A DNA stretch of 64,000 bases from Candidatus Latescibacterota bacterium (GTDB lineage Bacteria > Latescibacterota > UBA2968): contig OZ220741.1 of NCBI GenBank assembly GCA_965116885.1, positions 3,584,001-3,648,000 of the forward strand, read 5' to 3'. The notes beneath the pieces are model-generated. The model saw nothing but the letters and a program-made list of their open reading frames with translations. It had not been told where the DNA came from and did no database searches. Shown in pieces: positions 5,187 to 63,775 of the stretch. The position numbers and the translations under genes are program-made. Every line of letters begins with the position of its first letter. Position 1 is the stretch's first letter.

Positions 5187-5231
5187 GTGAATACTCCTGT
5201 TTTAAGTTGGTTATTGTAATTTGTCTTCTGC

Positions 5232-9056: not shown

Positions 9057-9175
9057 AATGAAATGTCTTGATTGAGGTTCATTTTTGTATGTTTATATAT
9101 ACGCAGTAGCTCTTTGTCTTGCGCCACACCGATCCGGTAGCGCGGACTGAACTCGAAACAATGGGAAGAATATAT

Positions 9176-10591: not shown

Positions 10592-10615
10592 AAACAGCCT
10601 CCGAGACCGGCACGT

Positions 10616-11542
10616 CTAATTAGCAACGACTCTCTGATCAGAAGTACGCGTTTCGCTATCTTCAGCCCCAAAAGCCGCGTTGTCTTCGTCGTAATACCTG
10701 TTGTATCGTATGTTATTCCCTCCGCTTACCCACACGGCGCGAAACAGCGTTTGTCGTTTTGGCGGCATTGTAGCAATCACTTCTTTGGGTACGCTGCGAC
10801 CGCCCCATCTGCTGTTTACGGCATTGTAGAGGTGGAACAAGCTCAACCGCTGGCGATTCTCGTTTGTCCACCGAGTACCGGTATGGCATAGTGCTTCTGT
10901 GAAGATCAGCGCAGAACCTGCAGGACACGTATATGTGTCCCAAATTTCGCTCTCGCGGGTGCTCAATGACTCAGGTCGTTGAAATGCTGCCTTGTGGCTG
11001 CCAGAAGCCAGCATGGTGCCCCCGTCGCCCGGTCCGATCTCATTCAATTCCCAAACCACGCGTGTCAATCCCGAATGCACCTTACCCGGAAGCATCTGGT
11101 AGATGTGTGAATTTCCGATGAGATTAAAATAGCCGCTGCCCCCGTGAGGCTTGAATTGATCGTATCCCACCTCGCGATAGTCCGTGCGTGTGCGCTCAAA
11201 TGTAAACCCATAACAGTCCTCGGTTGCCAACTGCTGACTTGCAACGATCTCATTCAAGATCCCGACAATCACGGGATGATCCAGCAGTGCTTGGGAAGGT
11301 CCTCCCACCGGATTCCGTTCTTCTGGCGGAAGCGACTCCGGCTCCTTAACGAGCTTCATCTGGTGTTCGTGGATCTCTGCCAACTGATCGCCTTCAACCA
11401 ATCCCGGCAGGCAAATCCAGCCCTTCATATCAAACAGGTACCTGTGCTCTTCGCTCATGGGAACGATAGGGAGTCCATCGGCATTGGTGGTCGGTAACAT
11501 TTTGCCCACATCAGGCTCCAGGTTTGGACGTCCTCGATTCAT
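10616..11542 (-). CDS. PhyH-family Fe(II)/2OG oxygenase (HxG variant)
   Basis: YLFDMKGW, PHGG, DGGTMLASGSHK, GSALIFTEALCH. Confidence 0.8.
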   Translation of the reverse strand: MNRGRPNLEPDVGKMLPTTNADGLPIVPMSEEHRYLFDMKGWICLPGLVEGDQLAEIHEHQMKLVKEPESLPPEERNPVGGPSQALLDHPVIVGILNEIVASQQLATEDCYGFTFERTRTDYREVGYDQFKPHGGSGYFNLIGNSHIYQMLPGKVHSGLTRVVWELNEIGPGDGGTMLASGSHKAAFQRPESLSTRESEIWDTYTCPAGSALIFTEALCHTGTRWTNENRQRLSLFHLYNAVNSRWGGRSVPKEVIATMPPKRQTLFRAVWVSGGNNIRYNRYYDEDNAAFGAEDSETRTSDQRVVAN

Positions 11543-11544
11543 AG

Positions 11545-12534
11545 CTAACTCCTTTCTTTTTTGGGTGAAAGCAGAAAATGGTCAAACCAGGCGACCATCT
11601 GCTCGAAGTACTCAACGAGAAAGCGATGATTGCCTTCGGGTTGATAGACTTTGAAACGATCGTCGTGTCCTGTTGAAGCATAGGCTTTTTGTACAACGGG
11701 TATAAGGGCATCGACGCCTTGACGCGGCATGTCTTCGTCCCGGGTGGGCGAGATCATCATAAAAGGTCGCGGGGGCATGCAGGTGGCTACGACGCGCGGA
11801 TGATCAAAATGACACAGGAAGTTGGGGATGTAGTAATAAGCACTGTGTCGTTCGTTGTCGCTCTGGTGAATGACGCTGGCCAGGCTGCCAAGGCCACCAC
11901 AGACAGTTACGCCTGCTGCGATCCAGGGTGCACACGCCATTGAATACCAGGTTGCGTTGCCGCCAAGCGACATGCCTGTCAGGCCAATGCGGCTTTTGTC
12001 AACGCCATTTGTCGCGCAAAGAATTCGAGCGGCTTTAAGTGTTTCTTCGACGAGAATGCCCATCTGACTTCGTCCATACGGAGATAGGAGCTTGTTCTCG
12101 GTTGCCCATTCTTCAATGCTGCGGCGCCTTCCTTCTGTGCCTTTGATCGAGATGGCCAGTGTCGCGAACCCTCGTCGCGCGAGTTCACGTCCCCAGCCAA
12201 TCAATGGACCATCGGGAGATTGATGGAAGTGTGGATGGGCGACCCGTTCTGCAGAACCGGATGTGCCAGAAATGCATACGATTCCCGGTCGCAATTTTTC
12301 AGTATGTCCAGGCGGTTCCATGAGGATGGCGGGAACGGTTTCGCACAGTGAGTTCTGATAGCTCAGATGGGTGACGCGAATGTCTTCGGTTTCTCGCGTT
12401 TCTGAGGTTGTGAAATCTACGTTGTCTGGGACTGCAGCCAGTCCCAGAAGCTCTATGAGCTTTGCGCGGATATCTGAGTCGGCAAGGTCAGATGTGAATG
12501 CTGGCTGGATGTCAGGTGGTATGATAGGTGACAT
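11545..12534 (-). CDS. Dienelactone hydrolase-like alpha/beta hydrolase
   Basis: GMSLGG nucleophile elbow, LARRGF, PPRPF, C-terminal GNH. Confidence 0.8.
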   Translation of the reverse strand: MSPIIPPDIQPAFTSDLADSDIRAKLIELLGLAAVPDNVDFTTSETRETEDIRVTHLSYQNSLCETVPAILMEPPGHTEKLRPGIVCISGTSGSAERVAHPHFHQSPDGPLIGWGRELARRGFATLAISIKGTEGRRRSIEEWATENKLLSPYGRSQMGILVEETLKAARILCATNGVDKSRIGLTGMSLGGNATWYSMACAPWIAAGVTVCGGLGSLASVIHQSDNERHSAYYYIPNFLCHFDHPRVVATCMPPRPFMMISPTRDEDMPRQGVDALIPVVQKAYASTGHDDRFKVYQPEGNHRFLVEYFEQMVAWFDHFLLSPKKERS

Positions 12535-14052: not shown

Positions 14053-14871
14053 TTAAGGCGTTGGAACATATCCCAACTGATCGTTATATACCACAGCTTC
14101 GGAGAAGGTCTCGTGAAGGTGGTCGAGAACCATATCAATTTTACACCCGCACAAAGAGCTGGTATAGGGCATCTCGCCGGTACGCCGGAAAAATGCCCCG
14201 TTCTTTTCGTGAAAATCACCCCGCCGGTCCATGAACTGCCCCCAGTATCCCATCGTGTATCGCATCTCTGTCCTTTTCTCAGCGCTCTGAATCCAGGCGT
14301 CGGGAAACAGCATTTGAAACCGCGGTGCCGAATTCAACCAGCTGCCGCATCGAACCACTTTTACTTCCGGACGACGTACTTGCGAATCCCTGAGCAGCCT
14401 GATTAGCGATGCCGCAAACTGTATGTGCATATCGCTGAGGGGAGATTTTGGCTGGTAAACATTGGCAATATGAAGGCTCAACGCGTCCTCGTGCTTGTAG
14501 TCATAATTCCAACATTCGTGTGAACGATCGCCAGGTCCGGACTGTTCATTACCCAATTTGCGAATGCGCGCTTCCATAAGTGGCCAGAGGATCGCAAGTC
14601 CCATAGTCTCCACGGTTTCACTATCATTACCATACTTGTCAAAGATTTCTCCCAGTTGCTCTACAATGACGTTCCATTCGGGATCTTCATCTCCCGCTGC
14701 CGGATGGTGGTTGCCGTCGTAGCGTGAGGTATTCCGGTACAGATTGACTCGCACGTTAACAGTATCTTCCAGGTCTCCAGGGTTTTCCCGCAGCCGTTTG
14801 TTCGCGTACCAAAGGCTCAACCGGGTGAATTCCCGAACATAATGCACGCGAATCGGATCGAGATCAGACAT
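14053..14871 (-). CDS. Conserved hypothetical protein (GSWL...WGQF family, possibly GNAT-like)
   Basis: Homologous to 46068..46820 (LHIAN, VRCGSWL, LFP, WGQF). Confidence 0.7.
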   Translation of the reverse strand: MSDLDPIRVHYVREFTRLSLWYANKRLRENPGDLEDTVNVRVNLYRNTSRYDGNHHPAAGDEDPEWNVIVEQLGEIFDKYGNDSETVETMGLAILWPLMEARIRKLGNEQSGPGDRSHECWNYDYKHEDALSLHIANVYQPKSPLSDMHIQFAASLIRLLRDSQVRRPEVKVVRCGSWLNSAPRFQMLFPDAWIQSAEKRTEMRYTMGYWGQFMDRRGDFHEKNGAFFRRTGEMPYTSSLCGCKIDMVLDHLHETFSEAVVYNDQLGYVPTP

Positions 14872-14899: not shown

Positions 14900-17086
14900 T
14901 TAATCTTTTCCTCGGCCGGATTTTGCGCCATAATCCTGCCAGCCCCAATCCAGATGGATTCGGGGTATGGAAAACTCGTAATACCAGCGAATACTCACGG
15001 GTTCGTGTTGAGGTTCCAGGTATGCATAAAAAAGAGCAGATCGACCCGTCACTTCATCCAGCATCCCTGCAGGCGTGAGTTCCGACAACAGATTCGGATC
15101 CTCTTCCACTTCCAGGTAATGCAGCAAATCATTTGTATGGTTTTCGGCGTCGCTGGAACTCACCTGAACGGGTGTCTCATGTTCATTCCACCACGACAAG
15201 TCCGATGCTGGTTGAGATTCTCCGTCTGCCGCCTTTGCCCAGATCGGTGTACTCCAGGCAAACTCTCCATCGTTCTGGCGAAGCCGTATGTAGTAGGCAT
15301 TCTCTTTGAGCGGATGCTCGTCCACGTAAGTCAGATCGACGTCCAGCGTGTTCGGACGCCAGGTCTTCAAGCGTCGATCATTCCGGATGAGATCTACGCG
15401 CTGCACTGTTGAGCATGCGTGAGCTACCACACGAACGCTGGCTGGGCCTGAAAGCTGTATCTCGCTGCCAGCGGGATTGCCCCCCAGCGAAACCATCAGA
15501 ATGATTCGAGCCCCGGTCGTGGCAAAGGTTCGTCTTTCAGCGACAGCTTGCCAGATGGCCTTTCGTTCACAGCGAGTGGCCCACACACCTGCCAGAGGAC
15601 CCGACCCAAATCCGGTGTCGCGGATGTTGAGCACCTTGTTGAACCGACCCCGGAAGCAATGGGGAGCCATTGGGGCGCCCAGTGTGGGCAGATGGATATC
15701 TCCCGATCCGATAACGGCCGGTCGATAGCCGTACCTCAGTGCCTTCTGCAGGAGCCACTCAAAAGCACCGTGACCGCTGGCCACTTCCAGCAGTGGTTCG
15801 ACATTTGGCCGAAATGCGTTCCAATTTGGCGGTCCTCCTCCAACGTGGGATTCAAGAAGAACATCCTCCCGATCTCCGTAGGTTGCCAGCAGGGTTTCCA
15901 TCGACGAAAAGGTCGGCATGTACCCATCTACCATCTCCCGGAACACGACGTTTCGGTCTCCTCCGGAGCGCGTGTGAACTTCCGATGCCAGGAAGGGCAC
16001 ATATATTCCGGGCTCATCGTGATTGGTATATGCCTGTTGAAAGGCTTCCCACAGTTCAGGTTCGTCAGCCTGATCTGGTGGCGACATGGGACCCGGAGCC
16101 GCAAAATCCAGCCGTCCCACTTCGCGGGCTTGCCTGTGTCGGGCATCCGGATCCAACTTGAAGCTGGGCTCGTCCATCAGCGCCATGGACGTATCGCCCC
16201 AAGCGTGAGAGTGAAAGTCTCCCCAGAGCAGCCGGATGTCCGGAGACTTCTGGCAGAATATCGGATTGCTTCTGGCTCGGAGGTCTCCATCCCTCGCTTC
16301 GAGGCGATAAACGCCAGGGTGGCTAATCTGCACGTCCTCCAACCTCAGGATGCCGTTATGTACTGGCTCAAACACCGCTCGATCCGGCAGACCCGATACA
16401 TTGTCGGGGGCAGTTAACTGGACGACGCCCCGATATTGTTCACACACATTTCGATGGATATCGAAAGCGACCAGATTGAGGTGAAACGATTCGCCCTGTT
16501 CGACAATGGATGGTCCCAGGATTCGCAGCATATCTGCGGATGCTTCTGAAGTAATGCGAATCCGGATCTCTCCACCCGCGATGCTGACAAATTCACCACC
16601 GCCATTGCGATCTACGGCTGCCTCCAGTCGCGCCATTGTAGTCGAGTCATAAACTTCAGCACCTGGACCACCCCCACAGCGATCACCGATTCGCAATCTG
16701 ACCCAATCTCCCTTTTGAAGGGCCCCTTTCGACACGCGAATCCTCGCAACTTCGGGTTCGTGACCATGGTCGGAATTGACAGTCAGGTCCAGCTTGGCGT
16801 CAGAATTTGACGCCATTGTCACATAGTCGCGTCCCAGTGGGTTATTTAGCTGAGGGGCGTGGCCCATGAGGAATCCGCGGCGGAAGAAGCAGAATCCACC
16901 ACCATCCTGCACATCCGCTGCAGCAGTAAATGTGATCTCCCACGTGCCGACTTTCCCAGCCGGCAGATTGAATGTGGACCCCGATGCAACAGAACCATCT
17001 GCACCCCGAAACAGGACCTCAAATCCGTCGGGTTCATCCCCGGGAATCGAGGCATGGATCCACTCTATGCGAGCGTTTTTTGACAT
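14900..17086 (-). CDS. DUF3604-like PHP-fold metallohydrolase
   Basis: SNP..WGDFHSH, GGDRNV, EVASGHG, GSGDIH, RRTFATTGARI, YYIRLRQ..WSTPIW. Confidence 0.8.
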   Translation of the reverse strand: MSKNARIEWIHASIPGDEPDGFEVLFRGADGSVASGSTFNLPAGKVGTWEITFTAAADVQDGGGFCFFRRGFLMGHAPQLNNPLGRDYVTMASNSDAKLDLTVNSDHGHEPEVARIRVSKGALQKGDWVRLRIGDRCGGGPGAEVYDSTTMARLEAAVDRNGGGEFVSIAGGEIRIRITSEASADMLRILGPSIVEQGESFHLNLVAFDIHRNVCEQYRGVVQLTAPDNVSGLPDRAVFEPVHNGILRLEDVQISHPGVYRLEARDGDLRARSNPIFCQKSPDIRLLWGDFHSHAWGDTSMALMDEPSFKLDPDARHRQAREVGRLDFAAPGPMSPPDQADEPELWEAFQQAYTNHDEPGIYVPFLASEVHTRSGGDRNVVFREMVDGYMPTFSSMETLLATYGDREDVLLESHVGGGPPNWNAFRPNVEPLLEVASGHGAFEWLLQKALRYGYRPAVIGSGDIHLPTLGAPMAPHCFRGRFNKVLNIRDTGFGSGPLAGVWATRCERKAIWQAVAERRTFATTGARIILMVSLGGNPAGSEIQLSGPASVRVVAHACSTVQRVDLIRNDRRLKTWRPNTLDVDLTYVDEHPLKENAYYIRLRQNDGEFAWSTPIWAKAADGESQPASDLSWWNEHETPVQVSSSDAENHTNDLLHYLEVEEDPNLLSELTPAGMLDEVTGRSALFYAYLEPQHEPVSIRWYYEFSIPRIHLDWGWQDYGAKSGRGKD

Positions 17087-33626: not shown

Positions 33627-33892
33627 GTTGTTTTCCTCAATCTGGACACCTGAGATACAAACTCACGGTAAAGTCCTTCAATGTCCTCAACGCCTACCCA
33701 AACCATACCATGTGCCTCGCCGACTGGATTTGCACTGAGATATATCGTCCAATCATCTCAACTCACGGATGCAAACGAACCGTCGTGCGTCCAATCCACC
33801 CTGAAACCCAAAGCGCTCTGATAATATTCCAGGCTGCTGTCAAGGTCTGAGCAACTGAGAATCGGGATTATGACCTCTACCATCTTTTGCAT
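33623..33892 (-). pseudogene. VOC/glyoxalase (bleomycin-resistance-like) pseudogene
   Basis: Not in the ORF track. MQKMVEVIIPILSCSDLDSSLEYYQSALGFRVDW...FASVS*DDWTIYL...VWVGVEDIEGLYREF; in-frame TGA at 33758-33760; C-terminal third missing. Confidence 0.75.
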
Positions 33893-33979
33893 GAGAACCT
33901 TTTCTTTTAAATTTTTTTACAAGATTCCTGTCCCAGCTAGCGGGTAAGGCACAAAAATCCTTCTTCACTCAGTGTTCTG

Positions 33980-34716: not shown

Positions 34717-34789
34717 TTTACCACTCATCCAGATTGCGATCAAAAAAACTCATAATAGCCCTGGAATCCGGTCTATCCATATAAGCCAT
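34717..34789. repeat. 3' end of Ham1 gene, duplicated at 42352-42424
   Basis: 73 bp, 2 mismatches by manual alignment. Confidence 0.95.
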
Positions 34790-35314
34790 GTCTGAAAAAT
34801 AACATCTACTATCGAGATCACACATTATCGAATTGAGAGGCGCACCGGGAATAGTTTTTTGGCTCTGATTTGAAGTAAATAGCACTTCCATTTGCCAACT
34901 GTGAAGAAGGGGTGTAGCCTCACTGTGAACCAGAGCAATGCAATTGTGCCAGGTGCCAACAGTTGAGCCACCAACAGAACATATTTTTTTTACATAATGG
35001 TCAATAATCTGCTGGTCTGTGACCTCTTGCTCTCGGGAACAAATTCGCCGGACAAAAACGTTGGGCTGCTCCTTTTTTGACAATCCATTGATCACCAGCC
35101 CAGAATCGATCGCAAAAGATGGGAGGCCCGATGTTTGATAATAAGCTATTGCCTTTTTGATCGCATTCTTTTCAGGGGTATCGCCGTCTTCAGTGACATC
35201 TAATTTTAGTCCCAATTGGATAGGGTCTATAATTTCAATTGAAAACGGCGATAAAATATGTCTAACATGGCGAATTTTTTCTTTATTAGCCGTTCCAAAT
35301 AGAATCTTCTTCAT
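34718..35314 (-). CDS. Ham1/ITPase-family non-canonical purine NTP pyrophosphatase
   Basis: FGTANKEK, EDGDTPEKNAIKKA, IDSGL. Confidence 0.8.
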   Translation of the reverse strand: MKKILFGTANKEKIRHVRHILSPFSIEIIDPIQLGLKLDVTEDGDTPEKNAIKKAIAYYQTSGLPSFAIDSGLVINGLSKKEQPNVFVRRICSREQEVTDQQIIDHYVKKICSVGGSTVGTWHNCIALVHSEATPLLHSWQMEVLFTSNQSQKTIPGAPLNSIMCDLDSRCYFSDMAYMDRPDSRAIMSFFDRNLDEW

Positions 35315-35462
35315 TGAAAAATAAACCTCTGTTCTGTATAGAGTTAAAACAGTATTTTTTTCTGAACGGATTCAAGATTTTCCTGTCCATTCAATCTGGT
35401 AAGGAGGTGGTTGCGTACCGTCGATATCTGTAAATCCATATTCACGAGATAGGTTTCCAATA

Positions 35463-35491
35463 TTGAGAACCTGCCCCGTTCGTGATATAAT
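35463..35491 (+). promoter_or_regulatory. Sigma70-type promoter
   Basis: TTGAGA-17 bp-TATAAT with extended -10 TG. Confidence 0.6.
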
Positions 35492-35520
35492 ATTCGGGTC
35501 GCAAGCAAGGACGACGACAG

Positions 35521-36303
35521 CTATTTGCTTTCTCCGTTCTTTATCGCCTTCAGAATGAACTGAGCGGGCAAGCCATCTGATGAGTCATCACGAGCACTCG
35601 AGTATTCCAAAAGATACACGATGCGCAGCCCGGATTGGGCTACGGCTGTAACGATGCTCCCTAGCATATGAGACCACTCAATTGTAGTGAGCCGTTCACC
35701 TTCTGGATTCCACTCATTCGGCTCTTCTTGTATCTCCGTGAATGGACCCTCGACGAAGTAAGTCTCCCGATATGAACACCCCTCTGCTTTTTCTTTCGCA
35801 AACCCTGTGAGAGGATGACAGCCGTGAAGAATGAAGATACCGCCTGATTTCAGGGTCAAGTAGACACTTTCAAACCATCTGTCAAGATCGCCAATCCAGG
35901 CGGTAACCCAGGAAGAGAAGACTATGTCGAAGCCGCCCTCGAGTAGATTCTCTGGCAGTTTGAGAATATCGGCGAGAACCAATCGGCAACTGACACCCAA
36001 TTCATCTGCGAACTTCTTAGCGGTTTCTAACTGGACTGGCGAGTTATCTACTCCAACAACCTGAGCCCCTTTGTGCGCCCAGGCCAGTAATTCGGAGCCT
36101 TCTCCACACCCCAGATCAAGTAGTTTCCTTCCGGTAAGTTCACCTGCCAACTCAAAGAAGATCGGTTCAAGACGATAGTTGCCATCCCGAATTCCTTTGA
36201 CAGGATCCTGGCGAATTTTTACTAGACCCGCATCCCTTTGTCTTCGAAATGAATCCCAGGCATTTCGATTATGTTCCGCAGCCTGATCAGTCATATTGGT
36301 CAT
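35521..36303 (-). CDS. Class I SAM-dependent methyltransferase
   Basis: LLDLGCGEG, GVDNS, FDIVFS, LKSGG, HP. Confidence 0.9.
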   Translation of the reverse strand: MTNMTDQAAEHNRNAWDSFRRQRDAGLVKIRQDPVKGIRDGNYRLEPIFFELAGELTGRKLLDLGCGEGSELLAWAHKGAQVVGVDNSPVQLETAKKFADELGVSCRLVLADILKLPENLLEGGFDIVFSSWVTAWIGDLDRWFESVYLTLKSGGIFILHGCHPLTGFAKEKAEGCSYRETYFVEGPFTEIQEEPNEWNPEGERLTTIEWSHMLGSIVTAVAQSGLRIVYLLEYSSARDDSSDGLPAQFILKAIKNGESK

Positions 36304-36410: not shown

Positions 36411-37433
36411 ATGCAAACATCTGAACAGACGAAGACCAATCTGAGGCGTTACGATACCCTCACCCGAATAGGCCAGGCTCGGCGTCTGCGAGAACTCGCG
36501 AAGTCCGCACTGCGTCAATTCGACATTCGCGTCCATCGCCTCGAACTCATCAAGCACCTGGTCAACACGACATTCAGACTCCGTTCAGATGAAGGAGAAT
36601 TTCTGGTTCGCATTCACCGAGAAAAAAACCACACCGTTCGCCTGGTCGAATCAGAACTGGCGTGGCTCCTGGCGCTATCCAAAGAAGCCGATGTTACAGT
36701 CCAGACACCCTATATCGCCCCAGACAGCAGAGTCGTTATTTTGGCGGAAGCCACCGGTGTGCCCCAAGCTTACCCCGTCACCGTGCTTTCATGGATCAAA
36801 GGAAGGATCGTGCCTCAGGCGCGTCGGACAACCGGGCATTACGAGAGCCTCGGTCGCCTTGTTGCCACACTACACAAACACGCGATGCAGTGGGATCCAC
36901 CTGACGATTTCGAACGCCCCGTCTATGATGCTATTCATCAACTGGGAAAGTTTTCAGTTCGACCCTTGCCTGAGTTAGGGCCTCGATACCTGCCCGCGCA
37001 CGTCTTGAGAGACATGGAAGCCGTCTATGAACGACGTCGAGAAGCCGAAAGGGTGTTGGGTACTGGTTGCGAGCATTTTGGCCTTATTCACTTTGACCTC
37101 AGCTTCAGCAACATCCTGTTCTCTGGCAGGGAAGCACTACCAATTGATTTCGATGCGTGTGGCTTCGGTTTTTATGCCTACGATCTCGGTGTTGCTCTGA
37201 CAGGTCCTTTTGCCTACGAGAACTTTATGGCCCGATGTGAGGCTGTCTTCCGAGGCTATCGCCAGGTCCTGCCTCTCAGGCGCGAATGGATTGAGTACCT
37301 CCCGACCTTCATGGCCTCTCGCACGGCTTCCTATATCTTACATGTCGCGGCCGATCCGAAGGCTGTAGAGTCACAGTGGCGCTCCCTTCTGCGTCCACTT
37401 CTTAAGGCCTCTCTTGATCAGTTTCCCTCCTGA
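36411..37433 (+). CDS. APH/homoserine-kinase-type-II family phosphotransferase
   Basis: NTTF, VRIH, SELAWL, LIHFDL..NIL, IDFD, YDL. Confidence 0.85.
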   Translation: MQTSEQTKTNLRRYDTLTRIGQARRLRELAKSALRQFDIRVHRLELIKHLVNTTFRLRSDEGEFLVRIHREKNHTVRLVESELAWLLALSKEADVTVQTPYIAPDSRVVILAEATGVPQAYPVTVLSWIKGRIVPQARRTTGHYESLGRLVATLHKHAMQWDPPDDFERPVYDAIHQLGKFSVRPLPELGPRYLPAHVLRDMEAVYERRREAERVLGTGCEHFGLIHFDLSFSNILFSGREALPIDFDACGFGFYAYDLGVALTGPFAYENFMARCEAVFRGYRQVLPLRREWIEYLPTFMASRTASYILHVAADPKAVESQWRSLLRPLLKASLDQFPS

Positions 37434-37491: not shown

Positions 37492-39558
37492 CTAAAATCG
37501 ACCAAAATCTGGGAAACTGGCTTCAAAGAGATACGCGAGCTTTGTAAATACGGCGCGCCCACCTGGCAGTCTGTCAACAAACACAAAGTAGAAGTGGCTT
37601 TCTGGGGTGAACTCGTAGTCGAAGATTGCGTTGAAATTGTAGCTGATCTCATCTTGCAACCGTTCATCTACGCGTTCAAAAAAAATGCGCCAACCGGTCT
37701 TTTGGGTCAATTGATAGTTACTGCGGAGCCGGAAAATTAGCGTATTTCGATGTGTACGCCAAAAGAAATTATCCAGGTCGAGATCAGCGGTCAACTTGCC
37801 AAATAGGTTGACACCCGCAGAGAAGCTGGTAAATCGGTTGAATTCATCTCGACGGGTTCCGAAACGATTTGAAACCTCCAGGTGCCACCACGGTGCCTGA
37901 TAATCAATCACTGAGCCGATAAACCTGGTATCGAAAAGTTGACCGACTTCGCGAAGGGCGCCAAACCCACCATAGGTGAAGAAATCAAATCGACCAATAT
38001 CAATATCAAAACGGAACTCACTCCGCCGTTCCCGCAGCAATTTTTGTGCATTGGTTTGGTAAAAATGGCGCATATCAGCACCCAATGACTGCACGAGATT
38101 CGCCTCTGGAAACTCGTGTCTGTACCTCACGCGAGCACGCCCCCGACGGAATGCCTCATCTTCAAGCCCCATCTCATTTGGACGAAAGCCATCCTGGATC
38201 TCTTCAAGCGCGATTTCGGTCAGCCAACCTTCATGAAGCCATTCCAACTCCGTGTGATACGCCCGATGCGTTTCGCCATCGATGAAATCGACAGCATACT
38301 GCGACGTTACAGTCCAGTCTCGATGAAGTCCAAATCGACCATTGAGTGATAGGAGTGCCACATCTCGATCTGCCTGGTGTTTATGGATTCCCATTGCGCC
38401 GATGACAGTGCGCTCGCCGATGTCGTAATTAACCCGCCCAGCCAAAAGATTTGCCTGCTTTTTTTTGTCTGCATCATACCGATCGATCATTTTGCCGTAA
38501 GTGTTGATGACCGCGAAATTAGAACCGCCAATTTTACCTGCTGTTTTTACACCAAAATCGATTTCTTGAACGCGGCGGGTATAGAATAAATTGAGCGGCA
38601 GCCTGAACAGTTCAGCACCTTCCCGGAAGAATGGACGGCGTTCTGGGAGAGACAACTCCCGATCACTTGATATGTTAATTTGCGTCGGGTCACTTTCCAA
38701 TTGTGAAAAATCGGGATTGAAAGTCACATTCGAGGTGAGGTGCGTCGAAATCGGGAGAATGAGGTCTAAACCACCATCGTGGTCATTGGAACGATTTTCT
38801 ATTGCACGATAGGTCCCGTAGGGGAGAATACCGATCTTCTGCTCTGTTTTGATCTTTTCGAAATTCAATCCGGTCAAATCGCCAAACTCCGATACGCGCC
38901 CGAAAAAATCGGTGCGTGCCCACGAATAGGATTGACCATTTATCGGATGTGTCCGCCAAAAGTTGATTCCCCACGTCGTATTGTGCCGATTAAAACGGAG
39001 CACGCGAAACGGGATCGCAAATTCTGCGGTCCAGTGATTTCGGTGTTTTTTTATTTTCGATTTCCATTTTGCATCCCAACTCAGGTCGAAGACACTCTCA
39101 TTACTGACCCGCTCGTCCATCTGTGTGCCGAGTGTATTGATTCCAAAAACGTAGCAGTTGCGACGGTCGCGATAGGTATCAATCATCACTTCGATACAGT
39201 CATTCTGCCAGATCGCGGAATCCCGGCGTATTTTCGTTTCACGCAAACTCTTCATGTCCGGCTCATCGCAATATACGCCGATATAGAGCATGTGCTCGTC
39301 GTACAAAATCCTGACTTCCGTGTTCAATTGCGCTGGATGGATGCTTCCCTCCTTTGCACGAAAGAAATTGGTTGCAATTTGGGCGCGTTGCCAGACACTG
39401 TCTGTAAGCTCGCCATCAATAATGGGGGGATTATCCGTCCATGTGGCACTGATGGTGCGCGTCGAGCTTTGCGTTTCAGCGAAAAGCGGTAGCGTCAGCA
39501 GCACAATTAGCACCCAAATTATCGCGCATGACCACCGCACCTGTTTGGCTTTCTCCAC
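37492..39558 (-). CDS. Secreted CBM9-like/DUF5916 protein (probable outer-membrane beta-barrel)
   Basis: Signal peptide, PIIDGEL, WTAEFAIPF, NPDFSQLE, PERRPFF, FYTRR. Confidence 0.8.
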   Translation of the reverse strand: MEKAKQVRWSCAIIWVLIVLLTLPLFAETQSSTRTISATWTDNPPIIDGELTDSVWQRAQIATNFFRAKEGSIHPAQLNTEVRILYDEHMLYIGVYCDEPDMKSLRETKIRRDSAIWQNDCIEVMIDTYRDRRNCYVFGINTLGTQMDERVSNESVFDLSWDAKWKSKIKKHRNHWTAEFAIPFRVLRFNRHNTTWGINFWRTHPINGQSYSWARTDFFGRVSEFGDLTGLNFEKIKTEQKIGILPYGTYRAIENRSNDHDGGLDLILPISTHLTSNVTFNPDFSQLESDPTQINISSDRELSLPERRPFFREGAELFRLPLNLFYTRRVQEIDFGVKTAGKIGGSNFAVINTYGKMIDRYDADKKKQANLLAGRVNYDIGERTVIGAMGIHKHQADRDVALLSLNGRFGLHRDWTVTSQYAVDFIDGETHRAYHTELEWLHEGWLTEIALEEIQDGFRPNEMGLEDEAFRRGRARVRYRHEFPEANLVQSLGADMRHFYQTNAQKLLRERRSEFRFDIDIGRFDFFTYGGFGALREVGQLFDTRFIGSVIDYQAPWWHLEVSNRFGTRRDEFNRFTSFSAGVNLFGKLTADLDLDNFFWRTHRNTLIFRLRSNYQLTQKTGWRIFFERVDERLQDEISYNFNAIFDYEFTPESHFYFVFVDRLPGGRAVFTKLAYLFEASFPDFGRF

Positions 39559-39607: not shown

Positions 39608-39719
39608 CAAGGTTCATGTGGTTTAGACAAATGGAATGGGGTTTAGGTTTTCCGACCGAGCTATTGAGGGAAGTTAGCAATTGAGGACATTGCTTTTGTG
39701 CGCGATTTAGCGGGGTGGG
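39608..39719. repeat. trpD stop region plus downstream intergenic sequence, duplicated at 43269-43380
   Basis: About 112 bp with ~6 substitutions and 2 indels by manual alignment. Confidence 0.95.
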
Positions 39720-40726
39720 ATTCTGGACAGTCGTTTATATTCAAGAAATTTCTCTTGAACCAACCCTTTTGCGAAGAGATCCTTGCTCAGATCAAAGCCT
39801 TCCTCAATCGAATCTGTTCGTCCAAAACAGTAGAAAGCTGCACCGGCATTCAAACAGACCATGTCCAGAATTGGTTCGGGGGTCTGGTGCTGTAAAAGAG
39901 ATAGGAAGATTTCTGCATTCTCATCACTATCACCACCCGGAATCTCACTGTAATCCCGTTTCGCTATCCCAAAATCTGAAGGCGAAATCTGGTATTCCCT
40001 GGTCACACCTTCGGCCACTTCAAAGATATGCGTGTGCCCAGAAATGGAGGTCTCATCAATCCCTGGCTCTCCGACAACAATCAAGAAGCGTTTACGCCCA
40101 AGATGGCGGAGTACTTCTACGAGTTGTCTGCCCATATCGACATCAATTGTTCCGAGTATCTGATATTGAGGATTGGCAGGATTGCATAATGGAGCGCTGA
40201 GATTGAAAATCGTCCTTCTATCAACCATTTGTCTGGCGGGCACAACTTTTTTCATTACTGGATGGTATGTGCGGGCAAATAGAAAACACACATTTGTCCT
40301 CTTGAAAATGTCTTCCAAACGGTTATCTCTGAAATCAAACTCGCAGTCGAGTTTCTCCAGCAAATCAAAGCTGCCATTCGGTCGCTTTGAGCCTTTATTG
40401 CCGTGTTTCACAACCGGAACGCCGCCAGCAGATAAAACGAACGCGGCGGTTGTCGATACGTTGAATCGATTTAAACCGCTTCCACCTGTTCCACACGAAT
40501 CAATGACGTCGGAAGGGAGAGGTACAGGTCTTGCTTTGGCCAATAAAGCTCTCGCAAATCCGAGAATTTCATCAGCAGTCTCGCCCTTCTCAGAAAACGC
40601 TATGAGCAGTTCTGCAATCTGTTCGTTTGGTAGGTTACTTTCCAGGATTGCACTCAAGCATTGTTCAGCTTCATCGGCCTGGAGAGATTCACCCTCTCTG
40701 AGTTTATCAATGCATTTCGAGATCAT
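39707..40726 (-). CDS. trpD: Anthranilate phosphoribosyltransferase (stand-alone)
   Basis: KGETADE, DSCGTGG, FNVST, KHGN, HPVMK, RTIFN, LNAGAA. Confidence 0.92.
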   Translation of the reverse strand: MISKCIDKLREGESLQADEAEQCLSAILESNLPNEQIAELLIAFSEKGETADEILGFARALLAKARPVPLPSDVIDSCGTGGSGLNRFNVSTTAAFVLSAGGVPVVKHGNKGSKRPNGSFDLLEKLDCEFDFRDNRLEDIFKRTNVCFLFARTYHPVMKKVVPARQMVDRRTIFNLSAPLCNPANPQYQILGTIDVDMGRQLVEVLRHLGRKRFLIVVGEPGIDETSISGHTHIFEVAEGVTREYQISPSDFGIAKRDYSEIPGGDSDENAEIFLSLLQHQTPEPILDMVCLNAGAAFYCFGRTDSIEEGFDLSKDLFAKGLVQEKFLEYKRLSRIPPR

Positions 40727-40760
40727 AGGTGGTGCTTCCTATTTACAAAAGAGCAAGAGG
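40659..40760. repeat. trpD 5' end plus upstream region, duplicated at 44328-44427
   Basis: About 100 bp with ~6 substitutions and a 2-bp indel. Confidence 0.95.
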
Positions 40761-41916: not shown

Positions 41917-42330
41917 TTAAAGCCGTTGCTGTTGCTTGAGTTGGGGGGCAATGTACTTCCGCAATATAGGATTCAGCGGATATTTTCCTGATTCGAGATC
42001 CTCCATAGATGCCCAGACGATCTCAAGTACCTCGTCGCCGTCTGGAACAGGTTCTCCCTCAAAATCTGTTATGTAAGCTCGAATTCTAATTATGTACCTC
42101 TCATAGGTTCTCGGTGGGGAAGTTATACGTTCATATTCGCCGAAGAATTCAGGATCTGTGGGGGTTATGTTGAGTTCTTCCATCAGTTCTCTACGTAAGG
42201 CATCCAAATCCGACTCACCATCCTCGACTTTTCCGCCAGGTAAGAGGTAGTCGTCAATGCCATCACACTTGACGAGTAAGAGTCTCTCTTGCGTGATCAG
42301 AATCCCTGAGATACGATTGATAGTATTCAT
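41917..42330 (-). CDS. NUDIX hydrolase
   Basis: Nudix box GGKVEDGESDLDALRRELMEEL; start re-set to MNTIN. Confidence 0.9.
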   Translation of the reverse strand: MNTINRISGILITQERLLLVKCDGIDDYLLPGGKVEDGESDLDALRRELMEELNITPTDPEFFGEYERITSPPRTYERYIIRIRAYITDFEGEPVPDGDEVLEIVWASMEDLESGKYPLNPILRKYIAPQLKQQQRL

Positions 42331-42351: not shown

Positions 42352-42424
42352 TTTACCCCTCATCCAGATTGCGATCAAAAAAACTCATAATAGCCCTGGA
42401 ATCCGGCCTATCCATATAAGCCAT
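42352..42424 (-). repeat. Orphan copy of the Ham1 3' end (MAYMDRPDSRAIMSFFDRNLDEG*)
   Basis: 71/73 identical to 34717-34789. Confidence 0.95.
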
Positions 42425-42436
42425 TTCAATGCATTC

Positions 42437-43225
42437 TCAGTCGGCAAAGTCATGGATTCTTTGATATACGCTCAATTTGGCCTGATCTAATTCCTGCCCA
42501 TATTCCTGGAAAAACAAAGGAATCCACTCAATCCCAAGATTTCTGCGAATGGTGTAGTGAACTGCGACAAAATCGAGATACCGATCTCCGATTCCCGCAT
42601 AGCCCAAATCAATGTAGCCACTTAAACGGCCATGGTGGATCATAACGTTGGGTAGGCAATAATCCCCATGGGTGAATACCAGGTCCTCTGGTGGCAGGTC
42701 GGCCCGTATGCTGTCCAGCTCATCTCGGAGAACATTCCTCGTTTCACCATCTGGTATCTGACCGTCCAGTACGCCTGAGTCCATCAAGTCTGTCGCCCAC
42801 GCAAAATAGCGTTCCATGCGCCAATCCAGAGGGCACGAATCGACCGCTATTGCGTGAATTTCGCGAAGACCACGAGCGAACAGGCGTACAAGACGCGGAA
42901 TATCATTTTTGGCATTCTGGTGGATGCCAGATACACCAGCGATTTGGGTCATGAGCAGATACTGAGTATTATCTTCTTCGTGGAAGCAGACCACGCGAGG
43001 AACGTTCAATTTTCCCTAGAGCCAGGACATTGCCGTTTTCTCGGCCAGAAGATCGGATTCTTGTGGTGCCGCATGCGTATCTCGTGCTTTGAGGAACAAA
43101 CTCTGTTTGCGTGGGTGAGTGTACCGGAACACGTCGGCACACGATGCTGTCCGGAGATTTTCCCCATCTGACTTAAAACCCTCAAGATGGGCTTGAACAG
43201 CAGTTGGAAGATTTTCGACTTTCAA
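42437..43225 (-). pseudogene. APH(3')-like aminoglycoside phosphotransferase with an in-frame TAG
   Basis: ORFs 43016..43225 and 42437..43009 are in the same frame (MSWL*GKLNVP); LFLK, THGDYCLPN, IDLG..GIGDRYLD. Confidence 0.85.
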
Positions 43226-43268
43226 TGCGCAACTCCCGACTAAGCTATTCTCAAAATAGAATCTTCTT

Positions 43269-43380
43269 CAAGGTTCATGTGGTTTAGACAAATGGAATGG
43301 GGTTTAGGTTTTCTGACCGAGCTATTGAGCAAAGTTAGCAATTCAGAATATTGCTTTTTGTGCGCGATTTAGCGGGTGGG
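43269..43380. repeat. Copy of trpD 3' tip plus downstream region
   Basis: Matches 39608-39719. Confidence 0.95.
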
Positions 43381-43439
43381 CATTTTTTTAGGCCCTGGGG
43401 TGGTGGTTGGGGCTTACAGGACACAAGCCTGAGGATTTT

Positions 43440-44303
43440 TTATTCAAGAATTTTCAGAGATTTTAATAGAGTTTTAGATGTTACTGAATAGCCCTGATGG
43501 GCTTCAATAGTGAGAATTGTAACTCGCGTTTTCCACAGTCCATCCAAAGTTTCAGCCGCTTCATATGTTGTCGTACAGTCGGTTACAACTATAGGCATGT
43601 AACCCAGGCAACTCATATTTCTTATGCCATGGGGCTTATTCATCAAACATTCATCGGTCTCAAAGCCCATGTAGAACAGGACCTTGATACGTTTTTCGGC
43701 AAGTAGCCGATGAAACTGGTCTCCTGAATAAACCAGTAAATCGCCATCCTGGGGTTCAACGGGTTCAGGTATTGATATTTGGTAATAGAGTTTCCCATGA
43801 ATATTCGCCCAATCTTTTATTCGCCAAATCAATTCGCGATGCTGATTTTTCCAACTGTCCACCCACTCTTGAGGAGGCCATTGATTGTTTCGTTCTTCTT
43901 TTAAATTTTCAGAAGAAGCAGAATTCGCAGATAGGCTCTGGCGTTCTTCATCGGTTGTTGACTGATTCCATTGAGGGTAGTTTTTCAGAAAATCTGCTTG
44001 ATTACAGTGAAAAATCTGGAAATCCATATCGCGAAGCGTATTTACTAATGGTCCGACTTTGGTCTCAATAATTCGGCGTTTTCGTTCTGCATGGGAGCGA
44101 CCTCGTTCAAAACTGCGATCACCAAGTTCTTCGTCAAAGGGGCCATCATCCCAGCCAAAATTCCAAAAATCAACCAAAGCAATCCCCACTTCTTTGACGT
44201 CAAAGGTAAATGGAATACTACGCCGACAGAATGTTTTCTCAGTGAAGGGCAATCCATCTTGGGGGCTGCGTGGAGTATATTCAAGATCAATCGTGAAATT
44301 CAT
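43440..44303 (-). CDS. Isochorismatase/cysteine-hydrolase-like protein
   Basis: ALVDFWN, YMGFETDECL, VVTDCTT. Confidence 0.75.
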   Translation of the reverse strand: MNFTIDLEYTPRSPQDGLPFTEKTFCRRSIPFTFDVKEVGIALVDFWNFGWDDGPFDEELGDRSFERGRSHAERKRRIIETKVGPLVNTLRDMDFQIFHCNQADFLKNYPQWNQSTTDEERQSLSANSASSENLKEERNNQWPPQEWVDSWKNQHRELIWRIKDWANIHGKLYYQISIPEPVEPQDGDLLVYSGDQFHRLLAEKRIKVLFYMGFETDECLMNKPHGIRNMSCLGYMPIVVTDCTTTYEAAETLDGLWKTRVTILTIEAHQGYSVTSKTLLKSLKILE

Positions 44304-44327
44304 GGTATATCCTTATAGGATTTTCTT

Positions 44328-44427
44328 CATTGTTCAGCCTCATCGGCCTGGAGAGATTCACCCTCTCTGAGTTTATCAATGTATTTCGAGAGCATAGGTT
44401 GCTTCCTACTTACAAAAGAGTAAGTGG
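44328..44427 (-). repeat. Copy of trpD upstream region plus first 22 codons (MLSKYIDKLREGESLQADEAEQ*)
   Basis: Matches 40659-40760. Confidence 0.95.
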
Positions 44428-46850: not shown

Positions 46851-46906
46851 ACTTAACGTGTTAGTGCCCCCGAACCGCACAGCAGTTGGGGGGCACTGTG
46901 TTAGCA
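46851..46906 (-). other. attC-like recombination site
   Basis: Minus strand TGCTAAC-ACAGTGCCCCCCAAC...GTTCGGGGGCACT-AACAC-GTTAAGT; 56 bp imperfect palindrome between higA and the next gene. Confidence 0.6.
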
Positions 46907-47693: not shown

Positions 47694-48686
47694 TCACCGC
47701 ACCTGCCCCATAGGCCATTCCGAGGTCGGCCTACCTTCCCAGGTTGATCGCCGAAAGAATCGCCCGCCTGGGGGACGACTAAACCAGCTACTAATTGCGA
47801 TTCCCCAAAAGTGCTCAAAGGATCTGTCTTTTAGATTCGCGTCACAGTATGCGTAGTGCGACAAGACCTCGTCGAGAAATGACTCTCCGTATATCCAGAA
47901 CCCATAGAAATCCTTAGCGGGATCCGTGATTTCGATGTCCCCCCAGTCTATGATCCCAGTAAGTCTTCCGGTCAAGGGGTCATGATAGATGTGTTTGTAC
48001 CAGAGGTCGTTATGAGCCAGCACAGGTTCGTATGAATGATCGATGCTTTCACTTCTTTCGATCCATGCTTCGAAAACATCGCGGACCTCACATTGAAGCT
48101 CGTCTGTCCGTTCAGCGAATAACTCCTTCCACATCCTGCGACGCCTAACCGATGCGTCACCTTCTTCTACGCCGAGGCTTCGTGCCTTCGCGACCGGGTA
48201 GCTGTGGAGTTCGCAGATGAAAATACCCAGCCTCTGAGCGGCCTCGCTGCGGTTCGCCTTGGAAAGTCTCCAAAACCGCCACGGCGAAAGTCGAGTCCCC
48301 GAAATTGTGTGGTATCCCGCAAAATCTGACGCCTTCGGCACGAATGCATAGTCGGGAATGGGAATGGCCTTCAGCCTGCTTCTAAGGGCATCCAGGACGA
48401 TCCGCTCCCTCGTCAGATTCGTATCCTCATCATTCTCGAACCGGAAAGCGATGCCATTGTCCAACAGAATCATTACATGATCGGGATCGGCAATAGTCTG
48501 AACTCTTCGGTAATTTGTCCACATGAGATCTGGAAAGGCATCTCTGATTCTCTCCAGGTAGTAGCTGGAAGCCAATGGGGGCATAGGGACCTGCCAAAGA
48601 GGATTAACTGCCGCGATTTCCTCTAACTGTTGGGGTTGCTGACGGGCTTGCAGCCTATCAGACAATTCATCAATAAAAAAAGACAA
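47694..48686 (-). CDS. APH-family phosphotransferase
   Basis: HNDL..KHI, GIIDWGD, DPAKDF; start uncertain. Confidence 0.8.
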   Translation of the reverse strand: MSFFIDELSDRLQARQQPQQLEEIAAVNPLWQVPMPPLASSYYLERIRDAFPDLMWTNYRRVQTIADPDHVMILLDNGIAFRFENDEDTNLTRERIVLDALRSRLKAIPIPDYAFVPKASDFAGYHTISGTRLSPWRFWRLSKANRSEAAQRLGIFICELHSYPVAKARSLGVEEGDASVRRRRMWKELFAERTDELQCEVRDVFEAWIERSESIDHSYEPVLAHNDLWYKHIYHDPLTGRLTGIIDWGDIEITDPAKDFYGFWIYGESFLDEVLSHYAYCDANLKDRSFEHFWGIAISSWFSRPPGGRFFRRSTWEGRPTSEWPMGQVR

Positions 48687-59312: not shown

Positions 59313-59355
59313 ACATAACGTTTCATTACTCCCGAACCACGAAGCGGTTGGGGGA
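59313..59355 (-). other. attC/attI-like site related to 46851-46906
   Basis: acataac-gtttcatta-ctcccgaaccacgaagcggttggggga; GTTATGT core about 18 bp upstream of the GNAT start. Confidence 0.5.
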
Positions 59356-62779: not shown

Positions 62780-63775
62780 CTATAGAAGTGATCTGATCTC
62801 ATCCACCGATAGCGGTAGTCTCCGAATCTGCCCTTCGAAGTCAAAGCGTGAGCGCACGGCGTCTCTCACCGTTCCTGGTTTCTCAATATAGTGCGATAGC
62901 TGATCAGCATAGTAGGCCGCCCAGACGACGCCAAATGTTTCCCGGTCTCCGACTGAGAGTGGTCGCTCAGAAAGATAGCCTCGTAGGAAATCCAGCATCT
63001 CTTTCTCCAATAGAGATCGTCCCCCAGTCAGATCATTCATTAGCCATCTGTGTTGGACCATTACAAGATCTACAGTAGCTGGCGCAAAAGAGTTGCAGAG
63101 ATCGGTGAAACCGACTTTCTCTCCATCCGTGTGGACGTTGGGACCCCAGACATCTCCATGCGTTGTCATCCACTGCACTGATGTTCGTATTAGGTACTCG
63201 TAGGTGGTTTGCAACTCGGTCTGAAGGGTCTTGATGGCGTTGCGAAGATCGCCAGGAAGAGAACGGGAAAGCGCTCGCCGAAGTCTGGCCTCTACAAAGC
63301 CAGTGAGATCTTTCTTTCGCATCCTGGATTTTTCGAACTTCTCCGATGCCAGATGAATCTTAGCAAGTCCACGTCCCACCGCACCCAATCGGTGGAGATG
63401 ACGAGAGTTGCAAGGTTCCCCACCGAGATCAGTTTCCACGGAGAGCACAACAGCATCTCCGATCATGATACACAAATCTCCGGAGAGAGTGGGGACAATC
63501 TGGGGGACAGGGGCATCATTTGTTGATAGATGATTGAGGAACTCGACAACTTCCTCCGGACAGAACTGACCCCGTGCCCAGTTCAATCGTGCGAAGAACG
63601 TCGCTCCATTCTTCTCAAATGAGAAAAGGCGCTCCGTGCCTGGTACCGGTATGAGAGAACCATCGAACTGCCAGGCTGACCGAAGGGCCTCCTGAATTTT
63701 TTCCTTTGGTGGAATCTGATCCACTAACTGCTCCTCCGATACATGGTTCTCAACAGCGCTTTCGAAGACCAACAT
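62780..63775 (-). CDS. APH/homoserine-kinase-II-like phosphotransferase
   Basis: PVPQIVP, LAKIH, HGDVWGPNV, FTDL. Confidence 0.78.
   Translation of the reverse strand: MLVFESAVENHVSEEQLVDQIPPKEKIQEALRSAWQFDGSLIPVPGTERLFSFEKNGATFFARLNWARGQFCPEEVVEFLNHLSTNDAPVPQIVPTLSGDLCIMIGDAVVLSVETDLGGEPCNSRHLHRLGAVGRGLAKIHLASEKFEKSRMRKKDLTGFVEARLRRALSRSLPGDLRNAIKTLQTELQTTYEYLIRTSVQWMTTHGDVWGPNVHTDGEKVGFTDLCNSFAPATVDLVMVQHRWLMNDLTGGRSLLEKEMLDFLRGYLSERPLSVGDRETFGVVWAAYYADQLSHYIEKPGTVRDAVRSRFDFEGQIRRLPLSVDEIRSLL

Follow-up and report, generated by a model that had tools for sequence, protein, structure and literature searches.

In a 64-kb stretch of chromosome from a Candidatus Latescibacterota bacterium (contig OZ220741.1; the window, with coordinates counted from its first letter), ends of a trpD segment and of a Ham1-like gene lie at 42352-44427 around two other genes, a weakly isochorismatase-like gene (ICH) and an APH(3')-like gene. 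The pieces of this 'shell' are true, old duplicates of sequences that stand intact a few kb away. The history that we favor for it, at about even odds (roughly 0.5), is segmental duplication followed by microhomology-mediated differential deletion, with some of the stubs kept as expression signals. An earlier note on this DNA had proposed that each gene body was overwritten in place by a foreign gene. Pervasive duplication and deletion is the simpler mechanism, and the heads and tails of many other genes, as well as shells that hold no insert, are present in close relatives.

Read in the direction of transcription, the shell opens with A' (44328-44427), which copies about 35 nt upstream of trpD together with its codons 1-22 (ATG at 44395-44393), is 92% identical to 40659-40760 and is closed by a TGA at 44329-44327. 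That stop is overlapped by c1 (44313-44330), a diverged fragment resembling the start of Ham1, which forms a mini open reading frame (ORF) reading MKKIL-stop and ends in the ribosome-binding site of ICH. It is a third and more diverged copy of the Ham1 start (a 15-mer with 2 mismatches, 44315-44329, between the trpD head and ICH), and it joins the trpD head within a CAATG common to trpD codons 21-23 and the sequence upstream of Ham1. ICH itself (43440-44303) is an intact gene of 287 aa. Beyond it lies C' (43269-43384), a copy of a 115-nt element found upstream of a CBM9/DUF5916 gene (93% to 39608-39722), and fused to its end is the start codon of c2 (43251-43271), a Ham1 start fragment of TTG, 5 codons and TGA that matches 35294-35314 at 19/21 positions and has an L001 counterpart at 7517-7531. 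The APH(3')-like gene follows (42437-43225), from a TTG at 43225 to a TGA at 42437. The last piece, h3 (42352-42427), holds the last 23 Ham1 codons and the stop, is 96% identical to 34717-34792 and stands directly 5' of NUDIX1 (41917-42330; Pfam NUDIX, 67 bits), which is the gene 3' of the Ham1 tail both here and in relative L008.

All of these features are on the minus strand, and every duplicated piece is collinear with the intact genes, which lie nearby in the same order, as the earlier note had said. They are trpD (39707-40726, or to 40760 with its upstream region A, 40659-40760; TIGR01245, 315.7 bits against a cut-off of 199) and the Ham1-like gene (34718-35314), parent of c1, c2 and h3, whose similarity to Pfam Ham1p_like (54.5 bits) covers the N-terminal half only and which falls below the NCBIfam cut-offs. 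The four duplicated pieces that had been described, A', C', c2 and h3, were all recovered at the coordinates given for them and far above chance. Self-blastn of the whole window returned five non-self matches, two of them DUF3604 paralogues and the other three the stub/parent pairs: 43269-43380 with 39608-39719 (92.9%, E 8e-40), 44328-44427 with 40659-40760 (92.2%, E 6e-35) and 42352-42427 with 34717-34792 (96.1%, E 2e-28). A separate repeat search found the same three pairs. The 21-mer at the Ham1 start (35294-35314) recurred at 43251-43271 with 2 mismatches and had no match in 100 shuffled sequences. As direct repeats, A'/A and C'/C have nearly the same period (3667 and 3661 nt).

We compared the window with four close-relative loci of 21 kb each (148 kb in total), found by scanning one genome per species with the trpD protein. 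These loci (L001, L002, L003 and L008) come from Latescibacterota metagenome-assembled genomes (MAGs) whose trpD protein is 93-96% identical to that of the window; L001 (OZ242311.1) is a separate single-contig chromosome assembly, and L003 is a short-read assembly. The whole shell is present and collinear in L001 at 94% identity (locus 4754-8366 = window 46049-42421). The L001 copies of the trpD head (6367-6468) and of C carry derived changes in common with A' and C'. Finding the shell in an independent assembly means that it predates the split between the window and L001 and is not an assembly artefact, so the stubs are old duplicates and, as the earlier note had argued, no assembly repeat. 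A chimeric join of strain variants, through assembly or binning, might have been suspected given that the source is probably a MAG from a strain-rich community. With the same shell repeated junction for junction in L001, and with similar stubs in four independent assemblies including the short-read L003, such an error is hardly credible.

One piece is not what it had seemed. C' had been read as the 3' tip of trpD with its downstream sequence, and it is not native trpD at all. In 4/4 relatives trpD ends in ...TCCAG(C/T)A(A/G)GCAG(A/G)AGTGA, and only in the window are the last 5 trpD codons and the stop supplied by the 115-nt element C (39608-39722, minus strand), the parent of C', which runs into the CBM9/DUF5916 gene (37492-39558). 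In L001 the native trpD end is followed by about 65 nt (about 80 nt in all), then C, then CBM9/DUF5916; a secondary deletion confined to the window has fused trpD to C. Because the shell piece is not trpD and the trpD segment of L001 is about 80 nt longer, the near-equal lengths of the shell and the trpD segment are coincidental. For this reason we also rejected a length-preserving replacement, which the similarity of the A'-to-C' distance to that of trpD had suggested. We considered too whether the start of C might be a dispersed motif and rejected this, finding only the C copies and 2-3 weak matches against a shuffle mean of 0.76.

Nor do the 5' and 3' pieces of Ham1 result from the exchange of one gene body. 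In L001 the order is Ham1 head, APH, a short-chain dehydrogenase (SDR) and a complete Ham1, and its sequence reads ...GAAATGG / TCC-SDR-Ham1...GACATGG / CC where the window reads ...GAAATGG / CTTATATGG. Relative to L001, one deletion at this microhomology, taking out SDR and the Ham1 body from the ATGG after APH to the ATGG at Ham1 codon ~176, yields exactly the h3 junction of the window. The last ~48 codons of SDR remain in the window as a stub 5' of Ham1 (35372-35525, minus strand), 95.8% identical to residues 246-293 of the L001 SDR (8377-9261). L008 has a separate Ham1 tail stub that begins 10 nt later (42417 versus 42427), right after trpD and before the NUDIX1 head, which supports an older order trpD - ... 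- Ham1 - NUDIX1. The suggestion that a trpD...Ham1 segment was duplicated therefore stands as regards the order trpD, spacer, Ham1 and NUDIX, backed by L008, but not as regards its 3' trpD piece. Why the Ham1 tail should be kept is a question to which a sigma-70-like match inside it (TGGATA-N16-TATTAT, 42414-42387, about 55 nt 5' of NUDIX1) offers a possible lead and nothing firmer. The tail stubs of the window and L008 start 13 and 3 nt upstream of its first hexamer.

The shell is one instance of a wider pattern. The region at 34-50 kb belongs to a long and exceptionally plastic array whose genes nearly all share one orientation; the content of the array is accessory (NUDIX, APH, HAD, GNAT, methyltransferases, a toxin-antitoxin pair, a lone trpD and the Ham1-like gene), mostly small modification or housecleaning enzymes, with a glyoxalase, an SDR and a HigB-type pair also present. 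The four relatives carry the same genes at 90-97% DNA identity in permuted order. Among the aligned blocks of the window and the four relatives (at least 85% identity and at least 60 nt), 224/224 were co-oriented and none was inverted. True permutations, seen as backward jumps relative to the window, made up 18/60 consecutive block junctions when counted by eye from the table of permuted and collinear junctions. Nineteen of these 60 junctions were direct joins (-35 to +4 nt), 16 had 5-100 nt of filler and 25 enclosed other genes. Block ends tended to hug genes: 27/47 left boundaries lay within -5 to +50 nt of a start codon, where random placement gave a mean of 2.0 and at most 8 in 2000 trials, and 33/49 right boundaries within -35 to +95 nt of a stop, where it gave a mean of 5.0 and at most 13, so that the modules are little more than a ribosome-binding site and an ORF.

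More distant loci are less disturbed. The source clade is Poribacteria-like and sponge-associated, and seven loci from Poribacteria MAGs (L004-L007, L009-L011) match the whole of trpD at about 80%, while an eighth (L017) matches its last 126 residues only, at 78%. Six of these loci were mapped (L004-L007, L009 and L011) and proved largely collinear at 78-91% DNA identity, with a few extra paralogous matches, which indicates that the scrambling is specific to the clade or the region of the window. In all six (at about 10001-11815), one and the same 264-aa gene begins 3-4 nt after trpD, a conserved context; in the clade of the window, trpD is a lone module within a variable array.

Remnants of genes accompany the scrambling in all five sequences. 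Short internal duplicates of 77-96% identity numbered 3 in the window (besides c1 and c2), 6 in L001, 2 in L002, 2 in L003 and 3 in L008. Several genes have been gutted with nothing put in their place: in L001 the head of NUDIX2 runs into NUDIX2 downstream sequence and 113 nt of ICH head run into 81 nt of ICH tail, both shells with no insert, and a DUF6932 head is joined to its own last codons (14690-14790), while in L008 an MFS gene is internally deleted and NUDIX1 is also gutted, again with no insert. In other places the remnant stands before a different gene. L001 has a complete subtilase of which L003 retains the upstream region and the first ~19 nt, ahead of a GNAT gene; L003 in turn has a complete GNAT of which L002 retains 39 codons, ahead of a 2-hydroxyacid dehydrogenase gene; a 73-nt HAD fragment is fused a few nt ahead of the trpD start in L008; and tails of AKR, APH, SDR and BNR genes sit ahead of other genes. 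A dead head may even be translated anew, as in a chimeric ORF of L008 (10851-11324) that joins 33 residues of the NUDIX1 head in frame to the body of DUF6932, a nucleotidyltransferase-like protein, and overlaps the 5' end of the 69-aa ORF located after NUDIX1 in the window.

The comparison with relatives that the earlier note had called for, for alleles in which the same flanks hold different genes, did find such slots. Between GNAT and a 148-aa gene the slot is empty in the window, holds the subtilase in L001 and holds the subtilase head, GNAT and a methyltransferase in L003; the 52-nt spacer left in the window is homologous to the L003 sequence 3' of the methyltransferase, as differential loss predicts. 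Unrelated genes between the same neighbors also occur 3' of trpD (L002 versus L003) and between HAD2 and AKR. Among the few junctions inspected base by base, microhomologies were seen at the APH / 384-aa gene junction (CTGAGAA) and between MFS downstream sequence and the AKR tail (AGCCGCC). Crossovers between ribosome-binding sites were tried as a general form of junction; they fit some boundaries and fail at AKR / MFS in L003.

Duplication with differential deletion is the simplest account of the lack of inversions, the stubs, the gutted genes, the variable slots and the Ham1 tail. In this history, one or more tandem or segmental duplications would have been followed by lineage-specific deletions at very short or no homologies, leaving one working copy of each gene and the heads and tails of the lost copies beside whichever genes survived. 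The shell would then be the decayed older copy of a segment that ran roughly trpD - C spacer - ... - Ham1 - NUDIX - small ORF - ICH. ICH and APH would be members of the array and not foreign captures; deletions, together with the junction that formed where duplicated units met, would have brought them beside the stubs, and loss of the trpD of the next unit would have placed ICH before C. Existing adjacencies form a suitable chain, from Ham1 tail to NUDIX1 (window and L008), from NUDIX1 through DUF6932 to the small ORF (window and L008; DUF6932 not always present) and from the small ORF to ICH (the second copy, in L001), so a single deletion could place ICH after a Ham1 head. The stubs may persist because deletions that reach into neighboring genes or their expression signals are selected against.

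Several observations sit uneasily with this history. The c1 and c2 Ham1 heads share both ends within a few nt, the AKR tail begins at the same GCCGCC in L002 and L008 despite different upstream DNA, and the 5' edge of the ribosome-binding site marks the start of the small-ORF module and of the 496-aa module, for each in three contexts; boundaries that recur in different contexts almost to the nucleotide are not predicted by random deletion. Apart from old paralogues, no repeat within any of the sequences is above 96% identity or longer than 160 nt, so that no fresh tandem intermediate has been caught. A deletion-only origin of the trpD shell would require at least three ancestral copies of the trpD region, and a reconstruction by hand from the adjacencies yielded no unique order of events. 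Finally, identity between blocks ranges from 82% to 97% within one genome pair, a heterogeneity that could reflect old paralogy and equally import from other strains.

It is the near-nucleotide recurrence of some boundaries that keeps the overwriting of genes in place alive as an explanation, although we consider it unlikely. A dedicated, orientation-preserving process of cassette exchange would drop modules of ribosome-binding site and ORF just after the starts of resident genes and keep the resident start and downstream contexts. This form, in which a new gene that has a ribosome-binding site of its own stands behind an old head, occurs in at least four independent cases (trpD head with c1 before ICH, c2 before APH, the subtilase head before GNAT in L003 and the GNAT head before the 2-hydroxyacid dehydrogenase in L002). 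Three Ham1-start units of ~15-20 nt delimit ICH + C' and APH + SDR in L001 (at 6467, 7517 and 9315) and recur in the window, the same nucleotides serve as boundaries in different contexts, left boundaries crowd near start codons (the 27/47 given above, against 2.0) and the trpD-head region is conserved. Yet a scan of 51 window ORFs yielded no recombinase, reverse transcriptase or transposase, and the junctions have no motif in common. The end of the Ham1 tail stub differs between genomes (42427 in the window, 42417 in L008), that tail has a simple deletion origin, and gutted genes without an insert exist. Selection alone would, moreover, be expected to leave breakpoints near gene ends, given how short the intergenic spacers are.

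A dedicated process behind the exact recurring boundaries, if there is one, would amount to a gene-cassette system of a new kind. Such a system, with neither attC sites nor an integrase, would exchange fixed-end modules of ribosome-binding site and ORF, in one orientation, at or after resident starts in Poribacteria-like sponge symbionts, and we regard its existence as doubtful. The resident promoter, leader and first codons would serve in it as an expression platform, stacked heads would be strata of successive overwrites and the ~20-nt Ham1-start unit, with its three copies, would be one landing site.

The repeat periods allow another origin for the outer part of the shell, through import from a co-resident, diverged strain. 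Here a segment with an A - ICH - C allele, circularised or linear, would have entered through one Campbell-type crossover within A (~100 nt) or through homology-facilitated illegitimate recombination, and would end up flanked by the direct repeats A' and C'. One crossover at A gives exactly the shared A'/A and C'/C period of 3667 and 3661 nt; the divergence of 4-8% between stubs and parents is similar to the distance between genomes, and the heterogeneous block identity within the same genome pair (82-97%) would also fit. Such an import would merely shift the origin of the A - ICH - C allele to another strain, however, and that allele was not seen in the four relatives; c1, c2, h3 and the gutted genes are left unexplained. 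We think it improbable as a source of the shell. The A'/A pair, 3.67 kb apart, could also be the att repeats of an integrative element, but there is no integrase, and C', c1, c2 and h3 within the segment would be left unexplained.

Site-specific recombination in a degenerate chromosomal integron-like array was weighed as well. The co-oriented modules that hug their ORFs are suggestive of cassettes, as are their functions (GNAT, NUDIX, glyoxalase, methyltransferase, HigB-type pair and APH), and one attC-like imperfect hairpin follows the HigB/HigA-like pair (window 46853-46905, minus strand; L003 5525-5578, 54 nt, -19.6 kcal/mol). Its arms, GCTAAC...GTTAGC, enclose a GC-rich stem, and the homology between the window and L003 ends inside its GTTA, as it would at the boundary of an integron cassette. 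This was the one convincing site among 8 gene-strand candidates in the 148 kb, the other 7 lying inside genes far from boundaries, in a scan that used a home-made core (RYYYAAC...GTTRRRY) plus a fold scan and not IntegronFinder. Folds of the intergenic sequences around the shell lacked attC-like hairpins, and the downstream flanks of 0-30 nt are too short for attC. A G / TT junction occurred at one boundary only (window 46854), and neither at the shell junctions nor at the other boundaries inspected; across 27 window boundaries inspected, no shared junction motif was found. With no integrase in the window either, we hold an integron origin to be very unlikely.

The HigA-side hairpin belongs to a small family of the form CCCCAAC-N-GGTTCGGGG (window 46892-46868 and 59353-59330; L003 1565 and 5538) that is not represented at the shell. 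Its member at 59330-59353 is a GC-rich hairpin like the one after HigA (CCCCCAAC-N-GGTTCGGG, then ACGTTATGTG) and lies in a 420-nt spacer 5' of a GNAT gene.

The Pfam scan of the 51 window ORFs detected no integrase, recombinase, transposase or reverse transcriptase; there was no transposase in 33-50 kb, and no inverted repeats bracketed ICH or APH. No tRNA or tmRNA was found, and Rfam gave no match at gathering score in the window and the four loci, with one chance-level match at E <= 1. Insertion sequences (ISs) appeared in the relatives only, as an ISKra4 in the L008 trpD, a TnpB-like ORF in L008 and a DDE transposase in L001, none of them at the shell. The ORF, attC and repeat scans thus show no hallmark of integron or IS chemistry at the shell, in agreement with what the earlier note had concluded. 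The ISKra4-family insertion, 1.7 kb long, splits trpD in L008 (8288-10000); its transposase (259 bits, cut-off 205) is encoded on the opposite strand, and the flanks overlap by 9 nt (window 40472-40464). In consequence, trpD seems dispensable in that lineage.

Of the two genes enclosed by the shell, ICH is intact and, with a dN/dS of 0.22 against the L001 orthologue, under purifying selection; L001 also has a second, internally deleted copy (15094-15283). The isochorismatase label given to it reflects a Pfam similarity that is weak and lies below the cut-off (25.4 bits against 27), with no NCBIfam match. The APH(3')-like gene between the Ham1 pieces does match its family in Pfam, and its intact L001 orthologue scores 199 bits on NCBIfam APH_3p (cut-off 205), but the window copy is a pseudogene, broken by one in-frame TAG (43016-43018) in a frame that is open in 4/4 relatives.

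The overwriting proposal held that expression context was retained on both sides of each gene. On the 5' side the data fit this: between the NUDIX2 stop and the ICH start, a stretch that includes the trpD head, only 6/194 sites differ between the window and L001, whereas the four flanking genes differ at 8.6% of their third codon positions (P = 0.002). C' differs from its L001 copy at 9/105 sites and by a 9-nt deletion, a neutral-like divergence at the third-position rate. From this small sample, at least the trpD-head region seems to have been put to use in expressing ICH. A consensus promoter scan of 39.5-45.1 kb found 5 promoter-like sites where 8.1 were expected and is hence uninformative.

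The favored history of duplication and deletion most resembles tandem duplication-random loss (TDRL), an orientation-preserving change of gene order described for animal mitochondrial genomes. As in TDRL, genes have been reordered but not inverted, the loss of duplicates is differential and the genes that were kept have remnants between them; duplicates collinear and co-oriented with their parents, remnants in all five sequences and junctions of illegitimate type are likewise expected of it and present here. The setting is different: a bacterial chromosome, protein genes of 0.4-2 kb and many events among genomes only ~5% apart. By their titles, the publications retrieved that pair TDRL with bacterial genomes all concern mitochondrial cases, and the titles and opening lines of abstracts from the literature on Poribacteria gene order and long-read MAGs, on integrons of sponge symbionts, on illegitimate recombination and on gene displacement contain no description of such an array or of gene shells.

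Other known processes share some features with the array. Mira, Ochman and Moran in 2001 reportedly described the decay of pseudogenes by deletional bias in host-associated bacteria. There too, dispensable or redundant genes are lost by deletions of hundreds of nt that leave fragments, whereas here the loss is coupled to duplication and reordering, and some stubs are apparently co-opted (the conserved trpD head and the NUDIX::DUF6932 fusion). Gene displacement in situ, with mosaic operons, is said to have been the subject of Omelchenko et al. in 2003; it also puts unrelated genes in the same slot between conserved neighbors in close relatives, but the classic cases lack physical scars, while here heads and tails of the displaced gene remain and the steps can be read. 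Chromosomal integrons offer co-oriented, promoterless-looking modules of ribosome-binding site and ORF that are shuffled between close relatives and have similar functions. The modules here differ in lacking attC at their ends, bar one candidate, in having no integrase within 64 kb and in junctions that are not G / TT. Integrative elements may also duplicate the end of a target gene, as prophage e14 does in icd, and the resulting direct repeat, with a diverged partial gene end a few kb from the intact gene, recalls the stubs. The array differs from that case in having no integrase, and its stub positions, with 5' and 3' stubs of two genes interleaved with other genes, are not those of a single element.

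If duplication and loss did shape this array, it would offer an unusual chance to read how gene order and operon content are remodeled in bacteria, with steps that can be reconstructed between genomes ~5% apart. It would also extend to a bacterial chromosome a mode of rearrangement known from mitochondria, and would include both a non-coding use of dead gene ends and the in-frame reuse of a dead gene head.

Over its whole length, the window carries all but two of its large ORFs on the minus strand, the exceptions being a sulfatase (9119-10591) and an APH (36411-37433). The latter is one of three further APH-family genes in the window (36411-37433 on the plus strand, 47694-48686 and 62780-63775). 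A polysaccharide-degradation cluster (sulfatases, alginate lyase, PL4, DUF3604, GH4 and BNR) makes up the lower half of the window, and insertions and deletions the size of genes account for most of its difference from the relatives. Between HAD and BNR, a 353-nt spacer (33627-33979) contains a 44-codon fragment of weak glyoxalase/bleomycin-resistance similarity (E 3e-4, below cut-offs), which is probably another gene remnant.

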